A DNA stretch of 64,000 bases, from positions 4,625 through 68,624 of the IMG/VR virus record IMGVR_UViG_2866783905_000002. One strand, given 5' to 3'. The notes under the pieces were generated by a model. It ran no database searches. It worked only from the letters and a program-made list of their open reading frames with translations, and was not told the DNA's origin. Below are positions 16,172 through 64,000 of the stretch, one piece after another (position 1 is the stretch's first letter; each line of letters starts with the position of its first letter). This stretch comes from a virus. Its lineage: Duplodnaviria > Caudoviricetes. A program made the position numbers and the translations under genes.

Positions 16172-16350
16172 GCTGCTTGCAGGCCGCCACGCGGACCTGC
16201 TCGGCCATCTCCGCCGTCACGACGGGCGACCGCAGAGCGAGCATCGCCTCCCGGAGGGTCGCGCTCGGGTCAAGCATGACGGCCGCGATCACTTCGTCGG
16301 CCTGGACGTACAGGCCGCGCGCAGCGGAAGGGGCGCGCGGCCCTGCCCGG

Positions 16351-16629
16351 CTACCTGCGGGTGTCGGCGTACTGCTGCCCCAGCCGCTCCCGCTGAGGCC
16401 CCACCTCCTCCTGCTGAGGCTCGTGGGTTTCCTCCATGCGGAGCGCCAGCCCGAGCACGAAGAACGTGGGCGCCCACTCGCCGACGAAGATCCCCCAACG
16501 GTCCGCGCGGGCGGTGTTCTCAGCGAAGTACGACGCCACCCACGAGGCGACGGTAAAACCGATGGATGCGATGCCGGCGGCGTACGCGTGTTCGGCTCGT
16601 ATCCCCATCTTGTGAAGCGTGCGGATCAT
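16351..16629 (-). CDS. Small actinobacterial membrane protein (RADRWGIFVGEWAPTFF motif)
   Basis: Two hydrophobic segments; motif recalled from chromosomal actinobacterial hypotheticals. Confidence 0.7.
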   Translation of the reverse strand: MIRTLHKMGIRAEHAYAAGIASIGFTVASWVASYFAENTARADRWGIFVGEWAPTFFVLGLALRMEETHEPQQEEVGPQRERLGQQYADTRR

Positions 16630-16739
16630 GATGCCCCCTGCTGTGGTCGATCCATCCCGCACCCCCGTACCCGACGACATGTCCGGTAACGAGCCGTTCC
16701 GAGCTTTTGGACTGCACCTATCCGAGAGGAAGCACACAC

Positions 16740-17777: not shown

Positions 17778-18008
17778 GTGGATGAACCCCTCCTGCTCGA
17801 CCTCGGCGAGCCCTCCACCCGCGACCACGTTTCCCGGTGCGCGGCCTGCAAACACCGGCTGCGCACCGACGCGTCCCGAGCTCTCGGGTTGGGTCCGGAC
17901 TGCGCGTCCAAGCTCGGCATCACCCCCCGCCGGCCCGTTCGGATCACAGGCGTGGAGAAGTGGCGAGACTGTGAAGGACAGATCGACCTGCTGGAAGAGG
18001 AGACATGA
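17778..18008 (+). CDS. DUF6011-like zinc-binding protein
   Basis: CAACKHRLRTDASRALGLGPDC. Confidence 0.7.
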   Translation: MDEPLLLDLGEPSTRDHVSRCAACKHRLRTDASRALGLGPDCASKLGITPRRPVRITGVEKWRDCEGQIDLLEEET

Positions 18009-32879: not shown

Positions 32880-33914
32880 ATGCTGATCAACACTGACTAC
32901 ATCACCCCGGCGGAGCTCACCGGCTACGTGCGGGCGGGCGCCGCTGACTGGGCGCGCAACCAGTTCTCGCTCGCGAGGTGGCTGCCGAACAACCCGATCG
33001 ACGACCTGGACTTCCGCTTCACGCGCGGCGGCGAAGGTCTCATCGAGGCCGCGACCTTCCGCGCCTACGACGCCGAGTCGCCGATCGGTTCCCGGCCTGG
33101 CGCGGTCCGTATCTCGGGCGAGCTCCCGCCGATCAGCCGCAAGATCCGGCTGGGCGAGTACGACCGGCTCAAGCAGCGCAAGCTGGATGACCGGATCCGC
33201 GGCGCGCTCATGTCGGACGCCGAGCGCATGGTCAAGAGCATCATGGCGCGGATGGAGCTGGCCCGCGGCGACGCGCTCGTCAACGGCAAGGTCACCATCT
33301 CGGAGAACGGTCTCATGGTCGAGGCTGACTTCGGCCGGTCCGGGTCCATGTCTGTGGCGCCTGGCACGCTGTGGTCGGACCTGGCGACCGCCACTCCGCT
33401 GACGGACCTGCTCGCGTGGCGGGAGACCTACATCTCCACCAATGGCGAACTGCCCGGCGCGATCGTCACCAGCACGCGGGTGCTGAACTATCTGCTGCGC
33501 AACGCGGAGATCCGGGCGCTGGCCGCGACCGCGATCGGTACGCCGACGCTGGTGGCGCCGGGCATGCTGACGCAGGTGTTCGAGGCGCACGGCCTGCCGC
33601 CGGTGTACGCCTACGACGCCCAGGTCAAGGTCAACGGCTCCGCCACCCGCGTGGTGGCTGACGACAAGCTGGTGCTGCTGCCCGCTCCGGGCGACGCCAA
33701 CAGCCCCGAGTCCTCCGACCTGGGCGCCACTCTGTGGGGCACCACGGTGGAGGCCACCTCGCCGAAGTACGCGATCGAGATGGGCGAGGAGCCCGGCATC
33801 GTCGCCGGATCGTACGAGGACGAGGACCCGATCGCGCTGTGGACGAAGGCGTCCGCGATCGGCCTGCCGATCCTGGCCAACCCCGACCTCGCCATGGTCG
33901 CTGACGTCGCCTAG
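32880..33914 (+). CDS. Major capsid protein (lambda gpE-like)
   Basis: 344 aa; AATFRAYDAESP, ELPPISRK, RMELARGDAL, GLPIL. Confidence 0.9.
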   Translation: MLINTDYITPAELTGYVRAGAADWARNQFSLARWLPNNPIDDLDFRFTRGGEGLIEAATFRAYDAESPIGSRPGAVRISGELPPISRKIRLGEYDRLKQRKLDDRIRGALMSDAERMVKSIMARMELARGDALVNGKVTISENGLMVEADFGRSGSMSVAPGTLWSDLATATPLTDLLAWRETYISTNGELPGAIVTSTRVLNYLLRNAEIRALAATAIGTPTLVAPGMLTQVFEAHGLPPVYAYDAQVKVNGSATRVVADDKLVLLPAPGDANSPESSDLGATLWGTTVEATSPKYAIEMGEEPGIVAGSYEDEDPIALWTKASAIGLPILANPDLAMVADVA

Positions 33915-41800: not shown

Positions 41801-43059
41801 TCAAGCCCGCTTGGGACGGCATCTCGGGGGCGATCAAAACCGCGTGGGAGAAGGTCATCCAGCCCGCCGTCCAGGCGTTCTGGAAGTTCATCTCCGAAAC
41901 ACTCCCGGATGGGTTCAAAAAGGGCGTCGACATGATCGGCCGCTTCTGGGACGGCCTCAAGGAGATCGCTAAGAAGCCCGTCAACTTCATCATCGAGACC
42001 GTCTACAACAACGGCATCGTGAGCTTGTGGAACACCGTCGCGGATGCGCTCGGTCTGGACGCGAAGCTGTCGAAGATCCCCGCGCTGGCGACCGGTGGAG
42101 TTGTGCCGGGGTACACGCCAGGGCGGGACACGATGATCGCGGCCGTTGGCGGCGGCGAGGCGGTCATGCGACCGGAGTGGACGCGCGCCGTTGGCACTGA
42201 CTTCGTCAGCCAGGCGAACGCCGCAGCTCGTAAGGGCGGCATCTCCGGCGCGGCCTCGTTCATGCAGCAACGGTTCATGGGCGCCTACGCCGGCGGCGGC
42301 ATCATCGGAGACGTTCTCGCCCAGGGCGTCAGGTGGGGCGCAGAGAAGCTGCTCAACCCGATCCTGGACAGCGCCGCTTCGGCGATGGGCAGTGGCCAGT
42401 GGGCGAAGATGCTCGTCTCATGGCCGCGCAAGATGGTCGACGACGTCATCACGTTCCTGGAGGGCAAGGAGGCCGCGGCCGGCGGTCCGGGCGCACAGAA
42501 GGCGTTGGAGTTCGCGCGTCAGCAGCTCGGCAAGCCGTACCAGTGGGGCGGCGCAGGGCCGAGCTCGTTCGACTGCTCCGGTCTGACGATGCGGGCATGG
42601 CAGGCCGGCGGCAGGTCGGACATTCCGCGCACGTCACAGCAGCAGATGGGGTGGGTGCAGCAGGTCGCCAAGCCCGTTCCTGGCGCGCTCGGTTTCCCTC
42701 ACCCAGGCCATGTGTGGATGTACGTCAACCCGAACACCATCATCGAGGCCCCACAAACCGGGCTGAACGTCCGGCAGGTATCTGCCCGCGCAGCTCAAAT
42801 GGTCGGTGTGCCCCCGTCGAAGGACGCCGCCACCTACGACAACGGCGGCTACCTGCCGACCGGCCACAGCCTCGTCTACAACGGCACCGGACAGCCGGAG
42901 CCGGTGCTGACGGACCGGCAGTGGCAAGCCATGCAGGGCGGCACCCGCGGCGGCGACGGGGCGCTGATTCGCATCGATGAGTTCAACGCCACCCCGCAGC
43001 AGGACCCTTACGCGATCGCTAAGGACCTGAACTTCATTCTGGGCCGTCGCAGGCGATAG
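38836..43059 (+). CDS. Tape measure protein with C-terminal NlpC/P60 peptidoglycan hydrolase domain
   Basis: 1407 aa helical with Trp-periodic repeats; LGKPYQWGG.GP.SFDCSGL...PRTS...GHV. Confidence 0.93.
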   Translation: MAEFQAGEVVVPVVPSAQSFIKDLQKQVLKGAYPLGQEIGKEIQRGISDQLKGVYEPLKEETRKQRQQAPKDGDQIGGSFAQAFRRRLEAGLKALPKAELDADATAADQQVQALRARLATLADQTIGIDIDAGAAETELAAIQRELAAIDGDAVTIDVRTDIATALAELAAVESGMNRVGGIVARPRVDVDISGALASIGTISAALAGLAAIPVAATVGAGVASLAAPLAAAGIGFAGLAAVAVPSVSRIGEALQQQEQAQKAATTATAGAAGAAQQAQIQALNLAAAEDRVADAKRDAKTAEDDLTRARQEAKRAAEDLARAVANAALDEESAALAVEEARQRLAEVQADPKAGELERKRAELDVRQAEQRAKDTQARNKQLQQDQKTADKAGIEGSDQVVAAKKRIEDANNRVEDAERQLRLMQLQQAAAAQQSAAANRQVAGEVIKLSPAAQKLAKQWKSFSDVYETWQKKLEPDVLPALGSGLQFVEKLLPKLSPLVKGVSGALDGLIDSATKALGGKFWTDFFAMLSREAPGIVTGLGKSFGNVITGVAGIVKAFLPFSGTVVGGIESATKAFSDWGKSLGESQGFKDFIAYVQENAPKVIEVVSNIATTIGNLLSGLSGPGAGALDVIVSISETLASLTPGQLQAIALAAAGVFAAFKAWQAITGIVNGVRSAIQTASSIVGGARAVWSGLGSAAKGAAGVARTAGSGIATAARTAGSVASKGATAAWTGIQTAASRAGAAARTAGTVIASAARTAGTAAVALLRVAAGYTRIAAQALLARTRILLATAAQVAVRAATAAWTAIQWALNAALNANPIGLIVIAIAALVAGLIYAYQNSETFRNIVDAAFKAIGEAATWVWETVLKPVFDALVALWQNVIAPAATWLWQTIIKPAFDGIGAAVQWAWTNLIQPAVQALVAFWQSTLGPVFTWLWNNIVKPAWDGIGKGIKIAWETIIKPAVAALVAFWRETLAPVFTWLWNTIIKPAWDGISGAIKTAWEKVIQPAVQAFWKFISETLPDGFKKGVDMIGRFWDGLKEIAKKPVNFIIETVYNNGIVSLWNTVADALGLDAKLSKIPALATGGVVPGYTPGRDTMIAAVGGGEAVMRPEWTRAVGTDFVSQANAAARKGGISGAASFMQQRFMGAYAGGGIIGDVLAQGVRWGAEKLLNPILDSAASAMGSGQWAKMLVSWPRKMVDDVITFLEGKEAAAGGPGAQKALEFARQQLGKPYQWGGAGPSSFDCSGLTMRAWQAGGRSDIPRTSQQQMGWVQQVAKPVPGALGFPHPGHVWMYVNPNTIIEAPQTGLNVRQVSARAAQMVGVPPSKDAATYDNGGYLPTGHSLVYNGTGQPEPVLTDRQWQAMQGGTRGGDGALIRIDEFNATPQQDPYAIAKDLNFILGRRRR

Positions 43060-49242: not shown

Positions 49243-49934
49243 AGCTTGTGAAGCGTTCCGAGTTCGGGTGGGGCTCCTCGGGGGCGTCCTACGCGAAGCC
49301 GGCTCGCGGCTTGGTCATCCACTATGACGGCTCGGACCAGGGGTTGGCGGGTAAGCCGCACAGCGCCTGCGTGACGTATTGGAAGAACACGCGCCGCTTT
49401 CACGTGGGCTCCGCCCGCCAGTGGGTGGATATCGGGTACAGCTTCGGCGCCTGCCCGCACGGCTACGTGCTGGAGGGCCGCGGCTTGAATCGCGCGCAGG
49501 CCGCCCAGCCGACCGGCAACACGACTTTCTACAGCGTGACGCTCATGGGTGGCCCCGGCGAGGAGCCGACCTTGGAGCAGATCAACGCTGTCCGTGAGCT
49601 GCGGGCGTGGCTGATGGACAAGGGCGTCGGCCCGCTGGTGAAGGGCCACCGGGACTTTTTCCCCACCTCGTGCCCGGGAGACCGCCTGTACCAGCTGGTC
49701 AAGGACGGCACGTTCGGCAAGGCACCGACTGAGGAGGACGACGTGGACGTCAACGATGTCTGGCACAAGGCCCAGATCAAGATGAACAAGGGCGAAGAGA
49801 CGGAGTCGGAGCGGTCGCCGGCCGCGGTGCTGCAGGAGCTGGAGACCGAGCAGGACCGGATGAAGGTCCGGCTGGACAACCTGAACGGCAAGCTCGACGC
49901 GATCCTCGACAAGCTCGACGCGCTGACTCGCTGA
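49239..49934 (+). CDS. Endolysin, N-acetylmuramoyl-L-alanine amidase (Amidase_2/PGRP-like)
   Basis: LVIHY, WVDIGYSF, VLEGRG, GHRDF.PTSCPG. Confidence 0.9.
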   Translation: MKLVKRSEFGWGSSGASYAKPARGLVIHYDGSDQGLAGKPHSACVTYWKNTRRFHVGSARQWVDIGYSFGACPHGYVLEGRGLNRAQAAQPTGNTTFYSVTLMGGPGEEPTLEQINAVRELRAWLMDKGVGPLVKGHRDFFPTSCPGDRLYQLVKDGTFGKAPTEEDDVDVNDVWHKAQIKMNKGEETESERSPAAVLQELETEQDRMKVRLDNLNGKLDAILDKLDALTR

Positions 49935-50426: not shown

Positions 50427-50488
50427 GACGCCCGCCTCTTCGTTGCCTTAGGGCAGCGGGGAGGCGGGCGTCTTTCGCGTTGTACGGC
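50427..50488. terminator. Bidirectional terminator plus GCGTTGTACGGC junction motif (copy 1)
   Basis: GACGCCCGCCTC...GAGGCGGGCGTC, then TTTC-GCGTTGTACGGC. Confidence 0.7.
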
Positions 50489-51054
50489 TACGCGGCAGCA
50501 GGATCCCTCAATCGTGGGGCTACCAGCTTGTCGAGGTTGTCGATGATGAACGCTTCGATCCGATCCCGCTCCTGAGGGTCGGTCGTGGTGACGCCTTGCA
50601 TGAGGAGGTCCAACAGGAAGGCGTCCACGTGCTCTCGCCGGTCGATGATGTTCTCTCGCATGGCGACCTCGGCGCCCTGCTCGCGGCACAGTCCACACCA
50701 GGCGGTGCCTTGCCTCAGGCTCACCCTTAGGTGGGTGTCGCACATGGGTGCGGTGACGAGGTGCTCGTGGACGCATCCCATCACGCTGATGCGGGCCGCG
50801 TTGTTCGGGCACGGGCCCGGCGTTACCCAGGGGTGGTCGGGGTCTTCGTCGATGACGCTGGCACAGGAGATCTCGATGTGGAGCGGGCCGACCATCTCGT
50901 GCATGTCGGGAACGGAGTCGATGTGGATGCCGAGACGGTCGGAGATCTGCTGCCTGGTGGTGATGCCCAGTTCGGCGAGGGCCTTGGATGTGTCGCGGAA
51001 CGAGATGAAACGGAACGCGTCCAGGCTTGTTAGAGGGATGTTCAGGACTGGCAT
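50488..51054 (-). CDS. Hypothetical Cys/His-rich protein
   Basis: RBS GGAGG; downstream of sortase in same orientation. Confidence 0.65.
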   Translation of the reverse strand: MPVLNIPLTSLDAFRFISFRDTSKALAELGITTRQQISDRLGIHIDSVPDMHEMVGPLHIEISCASVIDEDPDHPWVTPGPCPNNAARISVMGCVHEHLVTAPMCDTHLRVSLRQGTAWCGLCREQGAEVAMRENIIDRREHVDAFLLDLLMQGVTTTDPQERDRIEAFIIDNLDKLVAPRLRDPAAA

Positions 51055-51070
51055 GGCTCCTCCATCCGAG

Positions 51071-51649
51071 TCAGGCGGCGTCTGCCCACACGATGATGTT
51101 CGCGACGTAGTGCGAGGTCGTCTTGTCGAACGCTCCTCCGCAGGTGATGAGCCGCAGCGCTGGCCCGTCCGTCTCTCCCCAGATCTGCTTGACGGGCAGG
51201 GCGGTCTTGGCGGTCTGCTGCTTGCGCCCGGCGACGAACTCGTGCGTCTTGCCCTGCTTGTCGGTGACGAGGATCTTCGCGCCCTTGCTGAGGGTCTTGA
51301 GGCGGGCGAACACGTCGGGTCCGCTCTTGCTGTCCACGTGGGCGGCGATCACAGCGGGACCGTCCTCGCCGGGCTTGGGCCCTTCCTCGTACCAGCCAGC
51401 GCGCCCGAATGCCGGCGTCTCCATGCTGCCGTCCTTGGCGAGCCCGAGCGGCACCAGGCGGGCGTCCACGCCGATGGAAGGGATACGGATCCGTGCGGGC
51501 TCTGAGACTGTGCGGGCGGGCGTGCTGGGTGTGGCGACGGTGGACGGCTGATCCGCAACGCGAAATGGCTGAGACGGTCCAGGAGAGGCTTCCGCGCCGC
51601 AGGCGGACGTGAGGACCAGACAGGCGGCTACGACGGCGAGACGACGCAT
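51071..51649 (-). CDS. srtF: Class F sortase
   Basis: Lipoprotein-like signal LVLTSAC; RIRIPSIGVDA, AGWY, VIAAHVD, LRLITCGG, YVANIIV. Confidence 0.9.
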   Translation of the reverse strand: MRRLAVVAACLVLTSACGAEASPGPSQPFRVADQPSTVATPSTPARTVSEPARIRIPSIGVDARLVPLGLAKDGSMETPAFGRAGWYEEGPKPGEDGPAVIAAHVDSKSGPDVFARLKTLSKGAKILVTDKQGKTHEFVAGRKQQTAKTALPVKQIWGETDGPALRLITCGGAFDKTTSHYVANIIVWADAA

Positions 51650-51712
51650 GAGGGCTCCAGAGGTAAAGAGAAGGCTGGACGGCCCACACGGGACCGCCCA
51701 GCCGAAGGGGGA

Positions 51713-52849
51713 CTAGCGGGTCAGGCCGCCGAGACCGGTGTCCACGCGGGCGGGAACCGGGATGTTGTTCACGACCACGACCGGAGTGGTCGGGGTGGCG
51801 CTCGGCGTCTGGCAGTCCGGGGTCTCGGAGACGACGAACATCCACTCCGCCGCGGCGCCGTCCTTCAGCGTGTAGCCGTCGGCCGCCTCAGCGGTGAGGG
51901 AGACGTTGCCCGCCTCCACCGTGTACCGCTTGCCCTGCTCCACCGTCTTGCCGCTGGCGGTCTTGTAGACGACGCCGGCGACCTCGGGGATGGCGATCGA
52001 GGCAGTCTTGTCGTCGCAGGTGGCCTGCGTCAGCACCGGCGCCGCCGGCGTGGCCTCCCGCACCTCGGGGGTGTCGGTGGGGCTCGTCGTCGGCGACGGG
52101 CTCACGGGAGGCTCGGTCGGCGTGGGGCTCGGGCTGGGGCACGCCGCGGCCTTGTCGACGGTCAGGCGCCACCGCTCATCGCCCACCAGCCGGTAGCCGT
52201 CACGAGCCTCCGCGGCCACCCGGTAGACGCCCGGCCGCACCTTGTACTCGCCGGGCCGCCACGCCTCGCCGTTCACCTGGTAGGTGACGCCGTGCTTCGC
52301 CGGCACGGTCAGGGTGCCGCGGCTGGTGCCGCACTCGGGCTGGACCACCTTCGGAGCGTCGGGCGTCACCCGGGCCAGCGGACGGTTCAGGAACGACACC
52401 GGGCGGCCATCGACCCGCAGGTCCGACACGACCACCTGGCCGGGCTTGCCGTTGTCGTACACGACGCCGGCGGCGCCGATGCGGCCGTTCGCCGGCACCT
52501 TGAAGGTGACGACGCCGTTGCTGCCGCACTGGGTGCCCGCAGCGAGATTCTGGTCCCACGAGTTCGTGACGACGCCCTGCGCCTCCACGTAGACGCGGGG
52601 AGCTCCACCGTCGCACTTGGCGTCGCCCTGCAGGACGTAACGGAACGAGACCACGTCGCCAGCCTGGACGAACATGTCGAGGTTGGCGGTCTCGACGCTG
52701 GTGTTGCCGCCGACGAGACGAACCGTGTTGGAGTTGAGGATCTTCGACGGGCTGTTGGCAACCCATCCGGTAGCGGCGTGGGCGCTGGTGGCCAATCCAG
52801 CGACGACCAGCACGCCTACGGCCGCAGCCGCAGTGAGTCTGCTGAGCAT
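51713..52849 (-). CDS. Secreted repeat-domain protein, putative sortase F substrate
   Basis: Signal peptide ending SAHA; two internal TPxAP..Q..C..GV.Y..AEA.DGY.L repeats; Pro/Thr linker; C-terminal VPARVDTGLGG. Confidence 0.75.
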   Translation of the reverse strand: MLSRLTAAAAVGVLVVAGLATSAHAATGWVANSPSKILNSNTVRLVGGNTSVETANLDMFVQAGDVVSFRYVLQGDAKCDGGAPRVYVEAQGVVTNSWDQNLAAGTQCGSNGVVTFKVPANGRIGAAGVVYDNGKPGQVVVSDLRVDGRPVSFLNRPLARVTPDAPKVVQPECGTSRGTLTVPAKHGVTYQVNGEAWRPGEYKVRPGVYRVAAEARDGYRLVGDERWRLTVDKAAACPSPSPTPTEPPVSPSPTTSPTDTPEVREATPAAPVLTQATCDDKTASIAIPEVAGVVYKTASGKTVEQGKRYTVEAGNVSLTAEAADGYTLKDGAAAEWMFVVSETPDCQTPSATPTTPVVVVNNIPVPARVDTGLGGLTR

Positions 52850-55350: not shown

Positions 55351-55650
55351 GTGGCCGACTACGACATCCCCGACGACTTGCTGCAGCTCAAGGTGGACTT
55401 TCTCGCCGCTATGGCTCGCTGTGAGGAGATCGCAAAGCGGTTGCCGTCCGCGGTGGCGGTGCTCGCGCAGGAGGCCGAGCCTGATCCGGCGCTGCAGGCG
55501 GAGTATGACCAGGAGCGCGCCCGGCGACTCGACATCGTGGTGCGGATTTATCGGCACCCGTGGTGGGAGACGGTGAAGGAGACCCGGCATCAGGCGGATA
55601 TGGCGTTGCTGGCCGCGGCCAAGGAGGCGCTCGCGCGTCAGGAGTCTTGA
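55351..55650 (+). CDS. Hypothetical protein
   Basis: IPDDLLQLK...HPWW motif; promoter-like site upstream. Confidence 0.65.
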   Translation: MADYDIPDDLLQLKVDFLAAMARCEEIAKRLPSAVAVLAQEAEPDPALQAEYDQERARRLDIVVRIYRHPWWETVKETRHQADMALLAAAKEALARQES

Positions 55651-55845
55651 CCGTTGGTGGCGTCCGCTGCCGGCCCGGTCAGTCCTTCGGGTGGCTGCTC
55701 GTCCTGCGCGAGGAGGTAGGCGAGGCGCTCCTCCGGAGTCATGTCCACCCATACGGGGCGTAGGACGGGGTCTTCCTCGGGGGGTACGTCGCTCATGGGC
55801 GCCATCTTCGCGTGAGGGTGTGATCGCTGGCAGGCCGTTGGGCGA

Positions 55846-56052
55846 TCAGCGTGGGGCCCCTGGTTGGGCCGGGAAATCCACCACTTCCACCAGGTCGGCG
55901 AGGTCGACGTGCCGGGTGACTTGGGCGATGGTTGCGCAGTAGCCGAGCAGGTAGCGGCGGCCGTTCGTCTTCTGGGTCACCTTGAAGCGCTGCCTGTCGT
56001 TGAGGGTGATCACCTCTATGGTGATGCCTCGGGGTCCGCGCCAGCAGTGCAT
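55846..56052 (-). CDS. Small hypothetical protein
   Basis: GITIEVITLNDR...HVDLADLVEV. Confidence 0.55.
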   Translation of the reverse strand: MHCWRGPRGITIEVITLNDRQRFKVTQKTNGRRYLLGYCATIAQVTRHVDLADLVEVVDFPAQPGAPR

Positions 56053-56154
56053 GGCAGCAGGCTAACGCCGAATCGGACAAAACGGCATAGTCTGGACATG
56101 CGAAAGCCCCGGCCCGCGGGGAAGCGCGGTCGGGGCTCTCACGTGCTGATCAGG

Positions 56155-56445
56155 TCAGCCCAGCGACGGTGCCAAGCCGTAGTGCGCCCTCACTGTGTCG
56201 GCCACGCGCACCACCGGGTTGTCGTCTTCCGGACCGTCGCCGGGCCAGCCGCAGTCGAACGTCTTGTCGATCACATCCTTGGCGTCGAGGTGCCTGTACT
56301 CGGGCCGCTGGAGAAGTTGGTCCAACTCGGAGGTGAGCTCCTCCGCGATGACTTCGGTGTACTTCGCGCACACGCGCAGGCCGGCGAGCACAGCCTCATG
56401 CTTGGCGTTGTGGTACGGGGTGTCGGGCCGGTTCTTCAGAACCAT
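56155..56445 (-). CDS. Hypothetical protein
   Basis: RBS GGAGG; followed by hairpin. Confidence 0.6.
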   Translation of the reverse strand: MVLKNRPDTPYHNAKHEAVLAGLRVCAKYTEVIAEELTSELDQLLQRPEYRHLDAKDVIDKTFDCGWPGDGPEDDNPVVRVADTVRAHYGLAPSLG

Positions 56446-56520
56446 GATTTCCTCCGGGTGATGAGCGGGGTTTCGATCTCGAAAGGGTTAAGAGGGCGTG
56501 GCGCTTGCTGGCGGGAGTGG

Positions 56521-56805
56521 TCACGCTTGAGCGGCCGGGGCGTACCTGTCGATGTCCTTCACGGCCTCGATGAGGGCGCCGTCGATGTTCTCAGCGATCG
56601 TGTGAAGCTCGCTCGCGGTGATGTGCGGCATCGATGCGCGCACGGTGGCCAGCATGGAATCCATCGCCGTCTTCATCGCGTCCACGGCCTTGGCGGCGGC
56701 TTTCACTTTGGCTGCCTTCGCGTCCGGCTGCTCCAGGCCGACCTCGTAGAGGTGGTCCATTGCTGCGCTGAACCTTTTGACAGCGTCCTGGATGTTCTGG
56801 GTCAT
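56521..56805 (-). CDS. Hypothetical helical protein
   Basis: RBS AAGGA. Confidence 0.6.
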   Translation of the reverse strand: MTQNIQDAVKRFSAAMDHLYEVGLEQPDAKAAKVKAAAKAVDAMKTAMDSMLATVRASMPHITASELHTIAENIDGALIEAVKDIDRYAPAAQA

Positions 56806-56898
56806 GATCGGTTTCCTTCGGATTGGCGCGGATGGAGCTGGCTGCTCCGGGCACCCGCCACGGCCCCCGCGGTCGTGGCGAGCACCCGCAACAGCCGC

Positions 56899-57138
56899 TC
56901 ACCTCTGGCGTTCGACCCCGGCTGCGTCCAGCCATTGCTGGCCCTGCCTGCCGGCCAGTACCGCGGCTGGAGCTGACGCCACCTCCAGGGCTGTCGACGC
57001 GAACGAGGTGTGGGCTTCCGCCGCCGCGGCGAGGGCTGAGACCTTTGCCCAATCGCTTTCGCGGCGGGCCTTGGCGAGCTCGTCGAGGCAGTCCGCCGCC
57101 TCGCTGAGGTGCTCGGGTCCGGTCATTCGTCTAGCCAT
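56899..57138 (-). CDS. Hypothetical protein
   Basis: MARRMTGPEHLSEAA...ALAAAAEAHT; RBS GGAGG. Confidence 0.55.
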   Translation of the reverse strand: MARRMTGPEHLSEAADCLDELAKARRESDWAKVSALAAAAEAHTSFASTALEVASAPAAVLAGRQGQQWLDAAGVERQR

Positions 57139-57149
57139 GGGAAGGCCTC

Positions 57150-59084
57150 CTAGGACTCGTTGGGAACCATCTGGTAGACGTCGCCCTTCTGGCGGGCGAC
57201 GCCGGCCTTGGTGAGGGCACGGAGGGCGGCAGGGATCTCCGAGAGGGGCACGTTCTCGCCGATCTGCTGGCGGACGGCGGCGCACACCTTGCCGACCTCC
57301 ATCGGCCCGTTCAGCAACGCCTTCTCGACCGCGGCCTGTACGTCGCCAGACGTCGGCTGGGACGTCTTGGACTCTGAGTGTGCGGGCTTCGTCTGCCGCG
57401 GGTCACGACCGCGCGTCTTGTGGTGGCGGTACTCGTCCATCCAGGCGAGCGTCCGTTCCCCAAGCTGGCCCGCCGCGGGAGTGGAGGCGATACCGAACGC
57501 GTCACGCACGGGCATCATGCGCGCCGTGGCGCCCGGCCGGCGGTCGACGCCAGTCAGGTAGCCGAGGCCGTGAGTTTTGCTGCCGTCCCGGAAGTACTCG
57601 GGAAGCTTGGACGGGTCCGAGGGCAGGCCGACCATGCCGTGGTCCTGCGACGAGCCTGTACGGAGCGCTGTGAGGCTGCCGCCGGACAGCAGGTTGGAAC
57701 GGAACGACTGCTTGTTGAAGAAGTTGTCCAGGCCCAGGTTCTGGTTGACCACGAGCAGGCCGCCGCCGGCCTTACGCCAGGTACGGACCCCAGTGGACAG
57801 CAGCTCGTAGCCGAGGGCGCCGAACGGGCCGTCGAGGAACAGCTTCAGCTCCTCGACGCAGACCAGGATCATCGTCATGCCGTTCAGGTCCGGGTCGCCC
57901 GGCAGCAGGTACGGCTTGCCCTTGCGCTCGCGACCCAGGTCATCGACCCAGGGGGCATGTGCCACGTAGTGGGCGCGCTTGGCCATGACGAAGTCGAACA
58001 TCTGCAGGTTCTCGTACGTCGCCTCGTGCCCTTCCCCGTAGATGGGGGTGCGGCCGGACCAGTCCGGCTGAGAGCTGCCATCCTGCGGGTCGAGCAGCGC
58101 CGTGGCGATGAGCGGGCACCGGTGGGCGAGGGCAAGCAGAGCGGACACGTGCGCGGACTTACCGGAGCCGGTGTCGCCTGCGACGACGCCCATCTGCGCG
58201 CCACCGGACGGCGTCCAGAACTGCCGGCGGGCGGGCTGCAGGTCGAAGAACGTGCCGACTCTGGCGATGCCCGTTTTGGGGTCGATTGCGGCGCCGGAGT
58301 CTTCCAGCCAGATGGTTTCCTGCAGGTTGGATTCGGACCGGATGACGGTCACTCGTGCGCGGGAGGCGTCCCCGTCGCCGCAATCCTCGACGGCGACCCG
58401 CGAGGGGTGCACCTGGTTAGCCGACGCGATTGTCTCCACAGCCGCAGGCAGGATCATCTGCGAAAACCGGGTGGTGCCGGGCTCGCCGACGATGATGCCG
58501 GTGTAACCGTTCGGGACGGGCTCGACCTGCTCCAGCGCGGTCACCTTGAACGCTTGCGGGCTGGAGTTCGGGGCGACCCGCTCCTGCCACAGCGCCACCT
58601 CGGGCGCCACTGCGGCGGTTTTCTGCTGCGCGGGCTGGTCCTTCGCCGCGGGAGCGACCTTGGGGCGGGGGCGGCGCAGCACGCCCAACACGTACGGCAC
58701 CGAGAGGATGATGCCGGCGATCCACAGCAGGAGCGCCACCCATCCGTACGGGCCGAACAGGCTCGCCGCCGCTGCCCACAGCACACCGGCCGCGACGTTG
58801 ACGATCGGCAGGTCCTGGCCGCGTCGTTCGGCGTTGCCGAGCACGACAACGGCGGTGGCGGTGATGACGCCGACGCGGATCAGCGGATGCGCCTCAAGGG
58901 CGTCGGCCGCCCACGCGGTCGTGTGGAGGGTGGCCAGCCACGCCACGGGCTGCAGCAGCGCGAGCTTGCCCCGCTCGTGGTGAGCGACCCGGCGGGCGGT
59001 GCGCAGCACGGCGTCGGCCCGGTTCGGCTGGGCCTGAGGGCTCGCGTCCGCGGCTGGTGCGGTCACCGTGTCGTGACTGGACAT
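57150..59084 (-). CDS. traB: FtsK/SpoIIIE-family DNA translocase, TraB/TraSA-like conjugative transfer protein
   Basis: N-terminal TM segments; Walker A AGDTGSGKS; LLDPQ; Walker B-like LVCVEE; RTWRKAGG; C-terminal winged helix (ALRALTKAGVA...GDVY). Confidence 0.82.
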   Translation of the reverse strand: MSSHDTVTAPAADASPQAQPNRADAVLRTARRVAHHERGKLALLQPVAWLATLHTTAWAADALEAHPLIRVGVITATAVVVLGNAERRGQDLPIVNVAAGVLWAAAASLFGPYGWVALLLWIAGIILSVPYVLGVLRRPRPKVAPAAKDQPAQQKTAAVAPEVALWQERVAPNSSPQAFKVTALEQVEPVPNGYTGIIVGEPGTTRFSQMILPAAVETIASANQVHPSRVAVEDCGDGDASRARVTVIRSESNLQETIWLEDSGAAIDPKTGIARVGTFFDLQPARRQFWTPSGGAQMGVVAGDTGSGKSAHVSALLALAHRCPLIATALLDPQDGSSQPDWSGRTPIYGEGHEATYENLQMFDFVMAKRAHYVAHAPWVDDLGRERKGKPYLLPGDPDLNGMTMILVCVEELKLFLDGPFGALGYELLSTGVRTWRKAGGGLLVVNQNLGLDNFFNKQSFRSNLLSGGSLTALRTGSSQDHGMVGLPSDPSKLPEYFRDGSKTHGLGYLTGVDRRPGATARMMPVRDAFGIASTPAAGQLGERTLAWMDEYRHHKTRGRDPRQTKPAHSESKTSQPTSGDVQAAVEKALLNGPMEVGKVCAAVRQQIGENVPLSEIPAALRALTKAGVARQKGDVYQMVPNES

Positions 59085-59103
59085 GGGGTTTCTCCTCGGA
59101 GGG

Positions 59104-59853
59104 TTAGTTGTTCGCGACTTCGAGGGCGCGGTTGGCGATGCGCTCCGCAACGCCAGCGGCCTGGTTGAGCAGGTCCTGCAGCTGGGCCGTCTCGCCGAGC
59201 AGGTCGGAGTTCTCGTTGAGGATTTCCGCCATGGAGGCGGCGAGGTTCTCGCTGCCGCTCATCTGGTTCCGCAGCTCCTGCGCGAACTCCTGGTGGGCGG
59301 TGGCGTAGCTGGTCAGGCCTGTGGCCTCGGTCTGCATCTCGGTTCCTTCCTGGACGGGTTCCGCCTCCGGGCTGGGGGCGGGTTCGGGTTGCGGCTTGCT
59401 GTCGTCGGCCGGTTCGGGCTGAGAGGTAGGCTTCTGCGCTTCGGGCGCGGGCTGGTCAGTCGCAGGCGGCGGGGCGGGCTGGTCGTCGCGCTTGACGACG
59501 ACCGCCTCGATCACCTCGCCGTCGACGGGCTGGGAGTCCTTCCACTGCCGGTAGCGGTCTCGGCCGCCATCCCACGCTGACCGGCGGATGCGGTTCGCCG
59601 CGGCGATGGTCTTGCACGCGCCGTACGTGGCGGCGAGACCCCATGACGCCCACCGGCGAGGGTTGATCGCGCGGGGGTTGCCTGCGCGGAGCTTCTGCTG
59701 GGCGAAGGTGTAGCCGTCACGGAACTCGCGGACGGCCTGGCTCTTGCCGGCCTCCCACGCGCCTGAGGCGGCGGCTCTGGCGTCGGGGCGGCGCCACAGG
59801 ACGCCGCCGCACACGATCGCCGCGATGAGCAAGGAGAGGAGGAAGATGCTCAT
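59104..59853 (-). CDS. Transfer-module protein (N-terminal TM, Pro-rich linker, helical C-terminus)
   Basis: Directly upstream of traB-like gene. Confidence 0.6.
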   Translation of the reverse strand: MSIFLLSLLIAAIVCGGVLWRRPDARAAASGAWEAGKSQAVREFRDGYTFAQQKLRAGNPRAINPRRWASWGLAATYGACKTIAAANRIRRSAWDGGRDRYRQWKDSQPVDGEVIEAVVVKRDDQPAPPPATDQPAPEAQKPTSQPEPADDSKPQPEPAPSPEAEPVQEGTEMQTEATGLTSYATAHQEFAQELRNQMSGSENLAASMAEILNENSDLLGETAQLQDLLNQAAGVAERIANRALEVANN

Positions 59854-60251
59854 CGCGTGTCCACACGCGAGGTCAGGGTCTGAACGTTCGTCTCCACCAG
59901 GTCAGCCACGTAGCCGAAGGTGGTGTCCCCGGTGAACAGGACGATGGTCAGCAACGCCGGCAGAGCGAACAGGTTCCACGGCTTGTCGAGCTTCTTGTCG
60001 GACAGGTCCGCGGCGGTGGCGATGCCGAAGCCGCTCCCCAGGATGAGGGCGATGCTGCCGACGATCAGAGTGGCGACCATGCCTGCACCTGCGGCGAGTT
60101 GGGCGACCCACGCGGCGATACCCACCAGGCCCAGCCCTGCCAGGAACATGAGGGCGCCCATGACGGGCCACCACTTGTCGCGCTTCTTGAGCTGGAGCGC
60201 GGAGTAGAGGAACACGGCGGTGGCGACCAGGCCGCCAAGGATGAGACCCAT
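59850..60251 (-). CDS. Multi-TM membrane protein (Spd-like)
   Basis: Four hydrophobic segments; in traB operon. Confidence 0.6.
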   Translation of the reverse strand: MGLILGGLVATAVFLYSALQLKKRDKWWPVMGALMFLAGLGLVGIAAWVAQLAAGAGMVATLIVGSIALILGSGFGIATAADLSDKKLDKPWNLFALPALLTIVLFTGDTTFGYVADLVETNVQTLTSRVDTR

Positions 60252-60262
60252 GGTTGGTCCTT

Positions 60263-60700
60263 TCAGAGGAAGAGGGCGATGAAGGCGATGAGCAGGCCGG
60301 TGCCAGCCAGCAGGCTCGGATAGCTGATGATCAGGAGGAGGAGGTGCGCCACGGCGCTGACCGCGATGACGGGGGCGCCGTAGATGGCGTACGGGATGCG
60401 CAGGATCAGCGCGTCCTTGATGTACGGCTTCGGATCAGTCCAGAACTGGCGGGCCAGATCCGCGACCGGGCGGGGGCGCATCCCGAGGAGGCCGTCGCCG
60501 ATCCACGCGGCACGCCACCCGTCGGCAGTCCGCTCCAGCGCCGGCCGTACGGCCAGGGCCAGCGCCAGAGAACGCTTCTGATCGGCGGCCGACTCCTCAA
60601 CAGGCGCGGGCACAGAGTGGGGAAACAGCACCACCTCGGCCGGCTTCTCCGCAGGCGCCTCGCCTGGCAGGTCCAGCTGGAACAGGTCACGCGCTGGCAC
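60263..60700 (-). CDS. Membrane protein (Spd-like)
   Basis: C-terminal two TM segments; in traB operon. Confidence 0.55.
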   Translation of the reverse strand: MPARDLFQLDLPGEAPAEKPAEVVLFPHSVPAPVEESAADQKRSLALALAVRPALERTADGWRAAWIGDGLLGMRPRPVADLARQFWTDPKPYIKDALILRIPYAIYGAPVIAVSAVAHLLLLIISYPSLLAGTGLLIAFIALFL

Positions 60701-60959
60701 GGGACTTACCTCCTCTCTGCGACATCAGATGGGCGTGGTGCTTGGCGTTGAGTCCGGACGCGAACGACATGAGCTGGTTCGCGAGGGTGAGTCCCTGCTC
60801 GTGCGCTTTCGCCGCGTCCCGGCGGTCCAAGTGCTTGAGCTCGGCTACCGCCCACCAGGCCGCCCACCAGAACCGCATGACGCCGTTCTTCTCGCGGGCG
60901 ATGCGGTTCTCGTGGAAGGTGCGGCGGGTCTGAGGGCCGGTCTGGCGCTTCTGCGACAA
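60687..60959 (-). CDS. Hypothetical protein
   Basis: RBS GGAGGAG before TTG 60959. Confidence 0.55.
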   Translation of the reverse strand: MSQKRQTGPQTRRTFHENRIAREKNGVMRFWWAAWWAVAELKHLDRRDAAKAHEQGLTLANQLMSFASGLNAKHHAHLMSQRGGKSRASA

Positions 60960-61010
60960 GGGGACTCCTCCGTTGCGGATAGTGAGGTTGACAAGGGCGG
61001 TTATACTCGC

Positions 61011-61054
61011 GCGCGTAACGCTTCTGTGCGCGTTACGTAACGCTTCTGCGTTAG
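61011..61054. repeat. Nested palindrome / 13-bp direct repeat cluster (operator or cis-transfer-like)
   Basis: CGTAACGCTTCTG at 61014 and 61036; CGTAACGC-N8-GCGTTACG; TAACGC-TTCT-GCGTTA. Confidence 0.55.
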
Positions 61055-61130
61055 GGGGCCTCTCGGCAGGGTTCGGCCGGCTCGCAGGACGTCTCTCCAT
61101 GGCTTGCCGATCGGTTACGGGTTGTGACCA

Positions 61131-61538
61131 TCACGAGGTCACCTCCAACAACCAGCCGTCGAGATCGATCAGGTCCTTCTCGCGGCCGAGGGGCACCAGC
61201 CGGAAGGTGGCGTCGATGAACGCCTCCAACTTCACCCGCTCGGCGTACAGCTCCTGGCGGCGGCCGTTGAGGGGCAGTGTGAGAGTGATGTAGTCGCTGT
61301 CGACGATGTGCGGCTCGATCCGCACTGCGCCGTCGCCGGTCGGCTTCTCCAGGCCGTCGATGAGCAGCGCCCTGCCGAACAGGACCTTGGTCACGTGGCG
61401 GCCGTCGCCGCGCGGGAGCACGAGCTCAACGGCGAACGGATCTGACAGCCGGTAGACGAGCGAGGCCGCGTACGGCTGTTCGTCGTGGCGGTCCGCCACC
61501 CACAAGATGGCTGGCCGGTGCACGAAGTTGGTCTTCAC
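61131..61538 (-). CDS. SsgA-like sporulation/cell-division protein (SALP)
   Basis: ASLVYRLSDPFAVEL...FGRALLIDGL..PTGDGAVRIEP...LEAFIDATFRLVPLGRE...DLDGWL. Confidence 0.88.
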   Translation of the reverse strand: MKTNFVHRPAILWVADRHDEQPYAASLVYRLSDPFAVELVLPRGDGRHVTKVLFGRALLIDGLEKPTGDGAVRIEPHIVDSDYITLTLPLNGRRQELYAERVKLEAFIDATFRLVPLGREKDLIDLDGWLLEVTS

Positions 61539-62746
61539 GCCGACACCTCCGCCGGCTCCGAAGCGTCCGAGTCGGCGACCGATCTGGTCGGTGCGATGAC
61601 CGTTCCGTCTTGTTCGAACGTGTAGCCCTGAGCGGTCATCCGCTTCTGCACTTCCTGGACGCGCTTGAGAGCCCAGGTTTCGCTGAATCGGAACCGCTCC
61701 GCGACTTCGGTTTTCGAGGGGCGCCGACCTTCACCGTTTCTGCCACGGCACCTTGCACGGATCCACTCGCGGGCCTCGCGATTGTCCTGCTCGTCGGGCC
61801 TTTCGCGGTCGCCGTCGGAGTCGCCGTCTCGGTCGCGGGTTCGGTCGCCGAAATCGGTGTCGTCGGCGACCGTGAGCGCGACCGGTTGCGCGACCGTCAG
61901 GGGGGTGGCCGGAGCGACCATCGCCGGTCGCGTGATCGGTCGCGTCTCGGTCGCGTCGGCGGCCGGGGAAGCGACCGCCGGCGCGACCGAAGTTGTCGGC
62001 TCGCTGCTCTCCACGCCACGCATGCGGCGGGTCGTCCACGCCCTCAGTTCGGCGAGCGCCTGAGAGCCGGTGTCCGGCTCGGCGGGTTCGGTGGCGGCGT
62101 GTGCTTCCGCGATCGCCTTCGCCCGCTCGACCGCTTCAGCGGTAGCACCGTCGATGGCCGCGGCCCGTACGGCGGCGGCGTGGTACGCCTTGTGTACGGC
62201 GAGGGTGATCTGGTGCTTCAGCGTCGTGACGGCTTCGGCCGCGCAGAACACCATGATCGGCGGCACGGAGTGGAGCAGGATCAACGCCGGGTCCAGGACC
62301 GTCCACGCCGACCACGTGTTCATCGCGTACGTGAGCGCGAGCGCCGTCCACTTGGTGCGGCGGATCCACCGGCCGGCCTTGATCCGCTGTCGGGCGATGA
62401 TCTGCTCGCCGAGGAGGACGCCGACGAGGACGAGGGACACCATGGGGTCGAGCAGCCAGGCGATCCACCACCCGATCTCTTCCTGGGTGCTGCCCTGGGC
62501 GGCGAACGACTGGACGTTCGCCATCGTGAACGCCAGCCCGAGGATGAGCCCGGTCCAGATCAGCCGGTCGACGCGGGTCCGCAGCCGCTCGATGCGGAGG
62601 GCGACCACGTCCGGGTCGGTGTCGTAGGCGCGCACGTCGGCAGCGGCTTTCGCCGCGGCGGCGAGCTTCTGCGCCCGCGTTGGGCGGCGCCGCTTGGCCC
62701 AGTCGTTGACCGGGCGGTCCGGCGGGCCGTGCTGGCTACTGTTCAT
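61535..62746 (-). CDS. SpdA/DUF2637-like spread/transfer membrane protein with C-terminal HTH
   Basis: AFTMANV...AWLLDPMV...MNTW...LHSVPP...AEA; four TM; C-terminal helical motif. Confidence 0.7.
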   Translation of the reverse strand: MNSSQHGPPDRPVNDWAKRRRPTRAQKLAAAAKAAADVRAYDTDPDVVALRIERLRTRVDRLIWTGLILGLAFTMANVQSFAAQGSTQEEIGWWIAWLLDPMVSLVLVGVLLGEQIIARQRIKAGRWIRRTKWTALALTYAMNTWSAWTVLDPALILLHSVPPIMVFCAAEAVTTLKHQITLAVHKAYHAAAVRAAAIDGATAEAVERAKAIAEAHAATEPAEPDTGSQALAELRAWTTRRMRGVESSEPTTSVAPAVASPAADATETRPITRPAMVAPATPLTVAQPVALTVADDTDFGDRTRDRDGDSDGDRERPDEQDNREAREWIRARCRGRNGEGRRPSKTEVAERFRFSETWALKRVQEVQKRMTAQGYTFEQDGTVIAPTRSVADSDASEPAEVSA

Positions 62747-62941
62747 CGCTCCGGTTCCAATCAGGGGAAGGTCGGTCGTTGGCGCCCGCCCGGGACTCGC
62801 ACGCCGGGTGTCTGCTGGCCGGTCTGGGGTGGTGCCCCGTCCGCGGGGCTCTGTGGGTGGATTCCGCCCACGGACGGGGAGTGGTGTCGCCCGGCTGCCG
62901 AGCCGCAGGGTTACCGCGGTGGGATGCGGCAGCCGGGCAAG

Positions 62942-63088
62942 TCATCGCGAGCCTCGCCGTGGGCTGCAGGTGGCGCAGGTGCATCCGTTCCTGACCAGGT
63001 TGGGGCGGTCGGACGGGCGCATCGCGGTGCACGCCTTCATCGCCTGGTCGAGGGTGGCGAGTGTCGCCTTGATCTGGTCGGCGGTCAT
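62942..63088 (-). CDS. Small Cys-containing hypothetical protein
   Basis: RBS GGAGG; GCTCATC. Confidence 0.45.
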   Translation of the reverse strand: MTADQIKATLATLDQAMKACTAMRPSDRPNLVRNGCTCATCSPRRGSR

Positions 63089-63471
63089 CGGGCCACCTCC
63101 TGGGAGGTCTGCTCGTGACGGATCTGCACATCGGCGATCCGCCCGCGGATGGCCGCAGCGATAGGCCGCGGCACTGCCCGGCACATGCCGGCGTGGTCGT
63201 TGGCGTCCTCGCGGGCTTCCTGCTCACGGCGGAACCCGGGGTCGTGGTAGGTGTCGCCCTCACGTCCGTAGGAGCCGCAACCGTGGCAGCGCCAGTTGTA
63301 GCCGTCGATCTCGTACGGCTTGCTGGCCCCGTACGGGGCGCCCCTGTGGTCGAAGGTGGTGGTGAACCGCTGGCGGTCCAGGTCGACCATGGCGCCGCCG
63401 AGAGTGACGAAGCGGGCGACGAGGGTCGTGGGCCAGTCCTCAGCCTGCTCGGCTGCTCTCCGGCGGATCAT
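63085..63471 (-). CDS. Hypothetical protein with zinc motif
   Basis: WRCHGC...ANDHAGMCRA; coupled. Confidence 0.6.
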   Translation of the reverse strand: MIRRRAAEQAEDWPTTLVARFVTLGGAMVDLDRQRFTTTFDHRGAPYGASKPYEIDGYNWRCHGCGSYGREGDTYHDPGFRREQEAREDANDHAGMCRAVPRPIAAAIRGRIADVQIRHEQTSQEVAR

Positions 63472-63776
63472 CGGGCCACCGCCTGACGGGGCACGTACGA
63501 GCGGAGGTCGATGACGTCCGCCGGCATCGGCAGGCCGGCCTCGTGGCGGACGGCGGCGACCCGCTGCAGGATCGACAGCGCCCCCTGGAACAAGGCGTCC
63601 GTTTCGGTGACGATCCGCTGCTGCTTCTCGCTCGTGAGAGAGACGACGTTAGGGCCGTGTGACATCATGGTGAGCGTCCTTCCGTAACCGGACCGGTGAT
63701 GGGGGACACGCGAGTGGGCGGCTTCGTCTTGGCGGATGAGGGCCGCCCTTCGCATGTCTTGGGGGATCGCGTTCAT
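63468..63776 (-). CDS. Hypothetical protein
   Basis: Coupled start/stop overlaps. Confidence 0.55.
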   Translation of the reverse strand: MNAIPQDMRRAALIRQDEAAHSRVPHHRSGYGRTLTMMSHGPNVVSLTSEKQQRIVTETDALFQGALSILQRVAAVRHEAGLPMPADVIDLRSYVPRQAVAR

Positions 63777-64000
63777 CAGATCGCGACCTCTTCCTGCTCG
63801 GCTCCCCACTTGGGCGTGGCCAGCAGTGCGTCTACAAAGGCGCGCGGGACTTGCTTCCTGCTGCGCACTGGCACGTGCGGGAATTCGCCGCTAGCGACAG
63901 CGCGCCGGACGGTCACAGGGGAGACGCCGAGCAGTTCGGCAACCTCGGGTATCGGCAGTGCCTGCCGCCTGTCCTCACACGTAGCGCTCTGATCGCTCAA
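63776..64000 (-). CDS. Excisionase-like HTH (HTH_17) protein, possibly 5' truncated
   Basis: LPIPEVAELLGVSPVTVRRAVASGEFP...RKQVP. Confidence 0.8.
   Translation of the reverse strand: MSDQSATCEDRRQALPIPEVAELLGVSPVTVRRAVASGEFPHVPVRSRKQVPRAFVDALLATPKWGAEQEEVAI

Follow-up and report, generated by a model that had tools for sequence, protein, structure and literature searches.

Can plasmid-type DNA-transfer genes be a regular part of a tailed-phage genome, and what would the phage do with them? The question is raised by the right-hand end of a 64,000-nucleotide stretch of viral DNA (hereafter the window; positions 4,625 to 68,624 of IMG/VR record IMGVR_UViG_2866783905_000002, Caudoviricetes), where a minus-strand gene module built around an FtsK-like ATPase lies beyond the lysin gene of a siphovirus. 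Phages are usually assumed to travel as particles only; for actinomycete plasmids, the assumed route is TraB-type pumping of double-stranded DNA (dsDNA) alone. To our knowledge, experiments on elements that combine both routes are limited to one or two plasmid-phages of Streptomyces; pZL12/phiZL12 (Zhong et al. 2010) and pFP4 (Chen et al. 2012) are reportedly of this kind and carry an actinomycete tra gene. An earlier note, made from the letters of the window alone, had proposed that its right end joins such a transfer operon to a siphovirus. We find that it forms the right arm of one temperate siphovirus genome, integrated at the 3' end of a tRNA-Ala gene, and that the module appears to be a regular part of this kind of phage genome and of the plasmid DNA-translocation type.

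The window corresponds to C458:11305-75304 within a 9.7-Mb genome of 469 contigs, and as the contig is 106 kb long, both window flanks could be read. Genes were called on this contig (about 68% GC) by GC content at the third codon position (GC3); protein families were searched in Pfam, NCBIfam and PHROG, and structures were predicted with AlphaFold2 (AF2) and compared with Foldseek. The best relatives of the ATPase all come from Nonomuraea, Streptosporangium, Microbispora and Sphaerisporangium, which points to a host in the Streptosporangiaceae, probably a Nonomuraea, and not to a Streptomyces.

Borders of the phage genome and of its neighbour

A scan of the contig for exact repeats turned up the 3' 45-46 bp of the tRNA-Ala(TGC) gene three times, as copies of an attachment site (att), and the array therefore consists of two tandem elements:

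contig 6549: att1, inside the intact tRNA-Ala gene
contig 6596-78748: element A, 72.2 kb, with integrase, phage genes and module
contig 78749 (window 67445): att2, shared border of elements A and B
contig 78794-94065 (L002:3490-18761): element B, 15.3 kb, an actinomycete integrative and conjugative element (AICE) of the pSAM2 type by its genes
contig 94066: att3, right end of element B

In each element, a tyrosine integrase gene follows immediately to the right of the left att copy, and ordinary chromosomal genes lie outside the tandem array. A fourth att copy, exact or degenerate, was not found in the contig with up to 16 mismatches in 47 positions or 4 in 20 allowed; none lies between contig 6595 and 78749, so that a hidden att inside element A is ruled out at these thresholds, and no tRNA gene was found inside the window. 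Because the att copy at window 67445 separates the two, the operon lies on the phage side of the middle att copy and outside the AICE. It is very probable that the module belongs to the phage genome.

These borders settle several points of the earlier note. Its statement that no integrase, tRNA or att site, RepSA or host gene stands between operon and phage genes holds, as does the view that both are parts of one element, here element A. It had advised reading the flanks for att sites and had named findings that would speak against a joint element. One of them, an integrase, RepSA and an att pair right of window position 64000, is literally present, but it delimits element B and leaves the operon outside; another, a prophage attR near 55.6 kb, does not exist in the stretch free of att copies. 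What does not survive is the idea that the window ends flank the immunity switch on a circular map. The window starts 4.7 kb right of attL and ends 3.4 kb left of attR, and on a circle the NUDIX gene, two GntR-type helix-turn-helix (HTH) genes, attP and the integrase would separate the operon from the early genes.

Judged by its genes, element B reads as a textbook pSAM2-type AICE that is independent of the phage. Next to att2 it has a tyrosine integrase; it further encodes an excisionase (TIGR01764), RepSA (PF20199, 2e-166), a 444-residue FtsK_SpoIIIE Tra protein (3e-24) and an SCO3933-family regulator, and thus holds all that defines an AICE (int with attP, xis and a replication initiator). 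Its cargo, an AAA_5 ATPase and an N6/N4 DNA methylase, is possibly a restriction or defence pair. Between the lysin gene and att2 there is neither an int nor a xis or rep gene that could belong to the module, which so lacks what defines an AICE; the sole integrase of element A stands at the far left end, beside the tRNA gene.

In a complete genome of the same genus (G307; L072/L073, C1:3058001-3094000), the same tRNA-Ala gene is followed by an element of about 10 kb with an FtsK-type Tra gene. Beyond it come another att copy and an integrase that shares 94% identity with the one of element B (310 of 430 residues aligned). This site contains no genes of phage A or of the module, which shows that the two elements are mobile independently of each other. 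Tandem integrative elements recurrently use the tRNA-Ala site as a hotspot; when an empty site was sought in relatives, that of the one complete same-genus genome examined, G307, was occupied by these other elements. Tandem AICEs with a 44-bp att between them have been documented (PMC2440964).

The hotspot also shows signs of earlier traffic. The unrelated integrases of elements A and B use the same tRNA-Ala target. Two pieces of the phage early region (window 16311-16716 and 17796-17990) are 84-86% identical to contig 95984-96635 (L003:680-1331), a stretch of about 0.6 kb that includes a DUF6011 ORF (open reading frame) and lies between att3 and the chromosomal lgt gene, and at contig 94935-95063 there is a match to the end of another element in G307. 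The element pieces right of att3 look like debris of older elements at the same hotspot.

Within its borders, element A carries the genes of a temperate siphovirus (window coordinates):

8857-9020, plus: putative phage origin, six copies of CACCGGTCA in the non-coding gap just upstream of the DnaB gene
9329-10252, plus: DnaB-type helicase (PF03796, E 2.8e-70)
27539-28942, plus: large terminase (TerL; Pfam)
28949-30430, plus: SPP1-type portal (Pfam)
32880-33914, plus: major capsid protein, capsid protein E (Pfam)
38836-43059, plus: tape measure protein, 1407 residues (Pfam)
49248-49934, plus: endolysin, N-acetylmuramoyl-L-alanine amidase (PF01510)

The virion set (TerL, portal, major capsid protein, tape measure and lysin) shares its att borders with the module, as is required of a phage-plasmid. 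The TerL shares 62-65% identity with the TerL proteins of Streptomyces phages SF1, SF3 and VWB, and the endolysin gene, at the end of the late genes, is convergent with the module. The integrase (563 residues, 88 bp from the tRNA gene; L001:6681-8372, left of the window) gives a weak Pfam signal, confined to N-terminal domains, because about 150 residues are inserted between box I and box II; both boxes and the RYSHV tyrosine motif can be read. The early side continues with an HTH_3 regulator and early genes. The CACCGGTCA copies are probably the iterons of the phage replication origin; element A is integrated here, with the DnaB gene and this iteron-like array present. The right arm ends before att2 with the NUDIX gene and the two GntR-HTH genes. 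The latter encode 84 and 81 residues with an HTH only (L002:2572-2826 and 3028-3273, extrapolated to window 66572-66826 and 67028-67273).

Genes of the module, its predicted pump and an embedded repeat array

Apart from the divergent GntR-type regulator (here the two HTH-only genes) and the NUDIX gene, which we count among its parts, the module consists of minus-strand genes in the following order of transcription (window coordinates):

63468-63668: 66-residue ORF without a match in Pfam, NCBIfam or PHROG
63085-63471: 128-residue protein with a CxxC motif; weak homologues in locus L043 and genome G294, no family match
61535-62746: 403-residue membrane protein with a disordered linker and C-terminal HTH-like helices
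61830-61990 (both strands): array of CGCGACCG, seven exact copies and twelve with one mismatch, candidate clt/sps-like site
61131-61538: SsgA-like protein (SALP), 135 residues (PF04686, E 7.5e-20)
60687-60959: 90-residue conserved core gene; homologues 50-70% identical at the same position in 14 related loci
60263-60613: 116-residue conserved core protein with two C-terminal transmembrane (TM) segments
59850-60251: 133-residue protein integral to the membrane, for which four TM segments are predicted, conserved core; Spd-like by architecture only
59104-59853: 249-residue conserved core protein with an N-terminal anchor, a Pro-rich linker and a helical C terminus
57150-59084: 644-residue FtsK-fold ATPase with a C-terminal winged helix, TraB-like translocase candidate
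55846-57126: four small ORFs (75, 79, 96 and 55 residues) 3' of the ATPase gene

The minus-strand gene set described in the earlier note is thus present, running from window 63668 down to 57150, with the small ORFs reaching 55846. Its description as tightly coupled fits three 4-bp overlaps, one of them between the 133- and 249-residue genes, and three gaps of 11-23 bp; it does not fit further gaps of 338, 171, 138 and 141 bp. Most module proteins have no match in Pfam, NCBIfam or PHROGs, and several first assignments were not confirmed. The 66-residue ORF, first read as an excisionase-like HTH protein, belongs to no family in these three collections. The two membrane proteins do have two and four hydrophobic segments, but no Spd family model in Pfam, NCBIfam or PHROG matched them, and Spd-like therefore refers here to architecture and 4-bp overlaps. 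For the 403-residue protein, the DUF2637 label was not confirmed: DUF2637 (PF10935) gave no match at E<=10, and BLAST found no similarity to the DUF2637 protein of PhiNon1, a published phage-like element discussed below. It occupies the position of a DUF2637 protein on a Streptomyces plasmid, only position and architecture agreeing; it has syntenic homologues of 470-583 residues in related loci, and its AF2 model, with a predicted local distance difference test score (pLDDT) of 56, is too low in confidence for a fold search.

Other assignments stand. The SALP scores 71.1 bits against a PF04686 gathering cut-off of 25 and is 48% identical to the SsgA-family gene product of PhiNon1, and SsgA-family genes occupy the same module position in loci L045, L050 and L053. 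The linker protein is the 249-residue gene product, whose homologues, 33-60% identical, are encoded directly upstream of the ATPase gene in 15 of 17 related loci. As for the small ORFs, that of 75 residues is kept 3' of the ATPase gene in L039 and L043, and that of 55 residues is 56% identical to a PhiNon1 ORF.

The ATPase has three N-terminal hydrophobic segments (residues 65-136), as expected of a membrane-associated protein, and its AF2 model (overall pLDDT 67) places long helices at 22-137. A Walker A motif, GDTGSGKS, is found at residues 303-310; G303, G306, G308, K309, S310 and E412 are invariant in 14 homologues, and the pair E411/E412 is invariant or nearly so. A profile of these 14 homologues matched EccC/FtsK in the PDB (E 4e-4 to 0.01) across the stretch from Walker A to Walker B, and Foldseek ranked the FtsK motor first for the AF2 model (E 4e-8), followed by the conjugation coupling protein TcpA and EccC. 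The protein is thus an FtsK-like motor with Walker A and B. Residues 579-639 are modelled as three helices followed by a β-hairpin (helix-helix-helix-strand-strand; pLDDT 82-87), a predicted winged helix that may serve in clt-type recognition. Neighbours of the ATPase in the ESM Atlas include a cluster named plasmid transfer protein TraB and a cluster that is 65% viral.

A candidate site for such recognition lies inside the gene for the 403-residue protein. When an array is defined as at least 5 copies of an 8-mer within 250 bp, the 106-kb contig contains two only, the one upstream of DnaB and the CGCGACCG array; the background rate of arrays with at least 6 copies was 8 loci per 1.26 Mb. The CGCGACCG copies occur in all three frames, where genome frequency predicts 0.05 copies in 160 bp, and synonymous resampling of the gene reached seven copies in 0 of 500 trials. 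Related loci (383 kb) repeat the pattern: 14 of their 18 arrays fall in a single zone 2.4-6.0 kb upstream of the ATPase start, where about 3 are expected, and those in the zone always lie in the 3' half of the homologous membrane-protein gene. The 8-mer itself is lineage-specific (CGTGTCAC, CGTGCCAC, GACACGAC, ACCCGATC and CCGTACGG in relatives). Protein-preserving synonymous nulls were exceeded in all nine genes, with 0 of 500 under both nulls in six and at most 11 of 500 in three.

Copy numbers above the synonymous nulls mark the array as a DNA-level feature, and as it is more repeated than the protein needs, we regard it as a candidate clt/sps-like site. Known counterparts exist for both the repeat type and its place within a gene: the cognate TraB binds clt, a set of direct 8-bp repeats (PMC4447253), the palindrome recognised by SpdA2 of pIJ101 lies within the gene for that protein (PMC4170104), and RepAM likewise binds 8-bp repeats in the gene that encodes it (PMC2440964). 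Two module proteins are candidate binders, the ATPase through its winged helix and the 403-residue membrane/HTH protein. A purely peptide-level origin was considered separately: it was rejected for the window copy (three frames, both strands) and is weakened in relatives by the synonymous resampling. Slippage is possible behind tandem 15-bp units.

The module in other genomes

Homologues of the ATPase were found in 12 of 300 sampled genomes of the host family; genomes G320 and G325, marked as unpublished, support none of the claims made here. Across 17 related loci the module keeps a conserved order, in which a divergent GntR/UTRA regulator is followed by an ORF of about 100-120 residues, a membrane protein of 400-580 residues and an SsgA-family gene, and then by an ORF of about 88 residues, a protein with two TM segments, one with three to five, an anchored protein of 250-300 residues and the ATPase.

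The best plasmid match of the ATPase (37-38% identity) is encoded on 'plasmid III' of N. gerenzanensis, a 59,257-bp circle that is the published PhiNon1 (NZ_LT559120.1). It encodes TerS, TerL, portal, prohead protease, HK97 capsid, tail tube and lysin, and the lysin gene is adjoined by an SsgA-family gene, a DUF2637 gene and the gene of the 654-residue ATPase homologue. PhiNon1 resembles element A in being a tailed-phage genome with the module beside the lysin, integration at a tRNA 3' end and a host of the same family (shared identities: ATPase 37%, lysin 66%, SsgA 48%); it differs in its size of 59 kb, its HK97-type head genes, its tRNA-Val target, its true DUF2637 protein and a TerL only 24% identical to that of element A. 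The module genes are shared while the terminases are this distant, and the module is therefore found in two different phage backbones. PhiNon1 is known from a circular form, which predominates at 17 copies, and from an integrated form at tRNA-Val, and its description (D'Argenio et al. 2016) notes an ssgA-like gene but no transfer module (PMC5431353).

Four IMG/VR contigs carry homologues that are 47-68% identical; the phage identity of these four viral records was judged by portal families. G302 (53.6 kb, CheckV 100%, Phage_portal 1e-61) has the order lysin, tail, capsid, portal, early genes, integrase, GntR and module, so that the integrase/GntR junction, split by integration in element A, is uninterrupted there. 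G303 runs through early genes, GntR, module, lysin and tail genes, and the lysins adjoining the module in G302 and G303 are 56-75% identical to that of element A. G304 and G263 have a second phage-linked layout, with late genes, lysin, GntR and module. In Streptosporangium sp. DT93, the order ATPase, 75-residue ORF, 99-residue ORF and lysin is as in element A. With the TerL of element A as probe, no match was found in the four viral records or in Streptosporangium sp. DT93, which have other terminase types. A TerL 70% identical to it does occur in G294, of another genus, together with a distant ATPase homologue beyond the late genes; this is the kind of co-occurrence that the earlier note had suggested looking for.

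Since the module sits in other phage genomes with different structural genes, its linkage to phage genes is no local accident. The same gene order, with a true DUF2637 protein in third place, is also present on a 96-kb linear Streptomyces plasmid, on which no phage-annotated gene lies within 12 kb on either side of the module. Its presence on a plain plasmid points to a module of plasmid type.

What the module may do for the phage

We propose that, after excision and replication, the hexameric-type pump would dock on the 8-mer array through its winged helix and, together with its membrane partners, would move unprocessed phage dsDNA across hyphal contacts and septal cross-walls, while the SsgA-like protein would adjust septation. 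The phage would thereby gain a capsid-independent route beside its virions. In our judgement, it is somewhat more likely than not that phage dsDNA is moved in this TraB/Spd-like manner, by pump and membrane partners, from one hyphal compartment or cell to another. The broader idea, a group of temperate tailed phages of mycelial actinomycetes with two infection routes, by virions and by a TraB-like pump, we put forward tentatively, and would not yet bet on it.

The closest functional model is the TraB-clt-Spd-TraR system of the Streptomyces plasmids pSVH1 and pIJ101 (Thoma et al. 2015, PMC4447253), in which spd genes are translationally coupled and TraR is of the GntR type. Both systems have a membrane-anchored FtsK-like pump with a C-terminal DNA-recognition domain (predicted for the module), a short-repeat cis site (a candidate here), small membrane proteins encoded in a coupled operon and a regulator of the GntR type. 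The module differs in an ATPase that falls outside Pfam FtsK_SpoIIIE, in the constant SsgA-like addition, in an array placed inside the membrane/HTH gene and in its phage carrier. With pSAM2-type AICEs (te Poele et al. 2008, PMC2440964), in which KorSA is of the GntR type and Pif is a NUDIX protein, it has tRNA 3' integration, a KorSA-like GntR gene, a Pif-like NUDIX gene and a predicted FtsK-type transfer in common; unlike them, it comes without an int, xis or rep and is carried within the genome of a phage. The plasmid-phages pZL12 and pFP4 are reportedly autonomous Streptomyces plasmids with ParAB, whereas element A is a chromosomal prophage; no sequence relation to them was detected, the ATPase finding nothing in the phage collection. 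Transfer of pZL12 is described as requiring the tra gene plus two adjacent genes (PMC3583192).

Several observations weigh against the proposal. The ATPase has no match to Pfam FtsK_SpoIIIE (PF01580) even at E<=10 and none in NCBIfam or PHROG, and one distant homologue reaches PF01580 with an E value of 1e-3, below the cut-off; the earlier designation as an FtsK/SpoIIIE ATPase is thus upheld for the anchor, Walker A motif, FtsK-motor fold and predicted winged helix, but not for family membership. Its similarity to the Tra protein of element B is only remote (hhalign E 1e-3, probability 20%). No relative of it was found in 50,697 deposited phage records, and therefore no virion-proven phage with this ATPase is known; likewise, none of ten proteins (those from the 66-residue ORF through the ATPase, plus the NUDIX protein) is represented in PHROGs. 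The arrays of relatives coincide with peptide repeats such as DEPRT or TPRDT, about two thirds of same-strand array spacings are multiples of three, and covariation between the third helix of the winged helix and the lineage-specific 8-mer is not clean. Element A, at 72 kb, exceeds the 43-61 kb of the phages with the closest terminases. Finally, its GntR genes have no UTRA domain, while related modules have one 251-residue GntR/UTRA regulator; either the effector-binding domain was lost or the regulator was duplicated.

The strongest competitor, which we consider unlikely but serious, is a device for vertical inheritance, in which the pump, the SsgA-like protein and the array act in segregation or spore loading and not in horizontal transfer. 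They would bring the extrachromosomal phage genome into sporulation compartments, retain it there, or do so across septa within one mycelium, and the pump or the membrane/HTH protein would read the array as a site of the centromere or KOPS type. The constancy of the SsgA-family gene in the module would fit such a role, as would the maintenance of PhiNon1 as a 17-copy circle (PMC5431353), the finding that SpdA2 of pIJ101 affects stability through sporulation cycles and not transfer (PMC4170104), and the position of the array inside the gene of a protein with an HTH-like C terminus. However, element A is integrated and hence inherited with the chromosome, and the gene order, GntR regulator and NUDIX gene match those of conjugative modules. 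Nor are segregation and transfer exclusive, as TraB and Spd proteins also drive intramycelial spreading (PMC4447253).

We give little credence to the module being lysogenic-conversion or exclusion cargo that moves no phage DNA and serves host or prophage otherwise, for example by excluding superinfecting phages or incoming plasmids or by altering development. It does lie in an accessory zone, convergent with the late genes and beside minus-strand cargo such as a sortase gene, and a Pif-type NUDIX gene confers conjugal immunity in pSAM2 (PMC2440964); yet exclusion would not need as much as ten conserved genes that include a DNA-pump fold with a winged helix and a DNA-level array, and on the plasmid the same set occupies the place of the transfer region.

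An accidental composite, in which the module is a decayed third AICE without att, int, xis or rep, left between the prophage and element B, is very improbable: the tRNA-Ala hotspot does hold tandem elements and debris, tandem AICEs at one tRNA are documented (PMC2440964) and the right arm has AICE-like NUDIX and GntR genes without int, xis or rep, but no att remnant lies between lysin and module, PhiNon1, G303 and Streptosporangium sp. DT93 keep the lysin/module junction, G302 has integrase, GntR and module in one uninterrupted stretch, and the module occurs in those phage genomes without an AICE-type rep or a second integrase.

The TraB/Spd-like transfer of phage DNA therefore remains our preferred reading. 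If it is true, a virus of a multicellular bacterium would spread independently of its capsid, aided by a phage-encoded SsgA septation protein. The concept is not new: it has a reported experimental precedent in pZL12 and a published sequence-level relative in PhiNon1, which agrees with the earlier assessment of it as rare rather than unprecedented. What is new is the proof, at the level of att sites, of which element owns the operon next to a separate AICE, the definition of a conserved module of ten genes in which an SsgA-family gene is constant, and the lineage-specific embedded array. A pump family that Pfam does not see, with constant partners (an SsgA-like protein, a membrane/HTH protein and an embedded repeat array), thus appears to be a regular component of integrating Streptosporangiaceae phages and occurs on plasmids as well. 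With a likely cis site and two candidate binding proteins defined, and with the PhiNon1 host N. gerenzanensis in culture, it provides a concrete, testable system for capsid-less spread through a mycelium; the locus also serves as a model case for separating tandem elements that share one tRNA.

Two smaller features of the phage genome may be recorded. A minus-strand accessory cassette at window 50488-52795, located between the lysin gene and the transfer module, has a sortase gene (PF04203, 8.5e-21) between ORFs of 188 and 360 residues. In the early region, the product of the gene at window 6404-6868 is 46% identical (84 aligned residues) to a WhiB-family regulator of a Streptomyces plasmid that bears the homologous transfer module.

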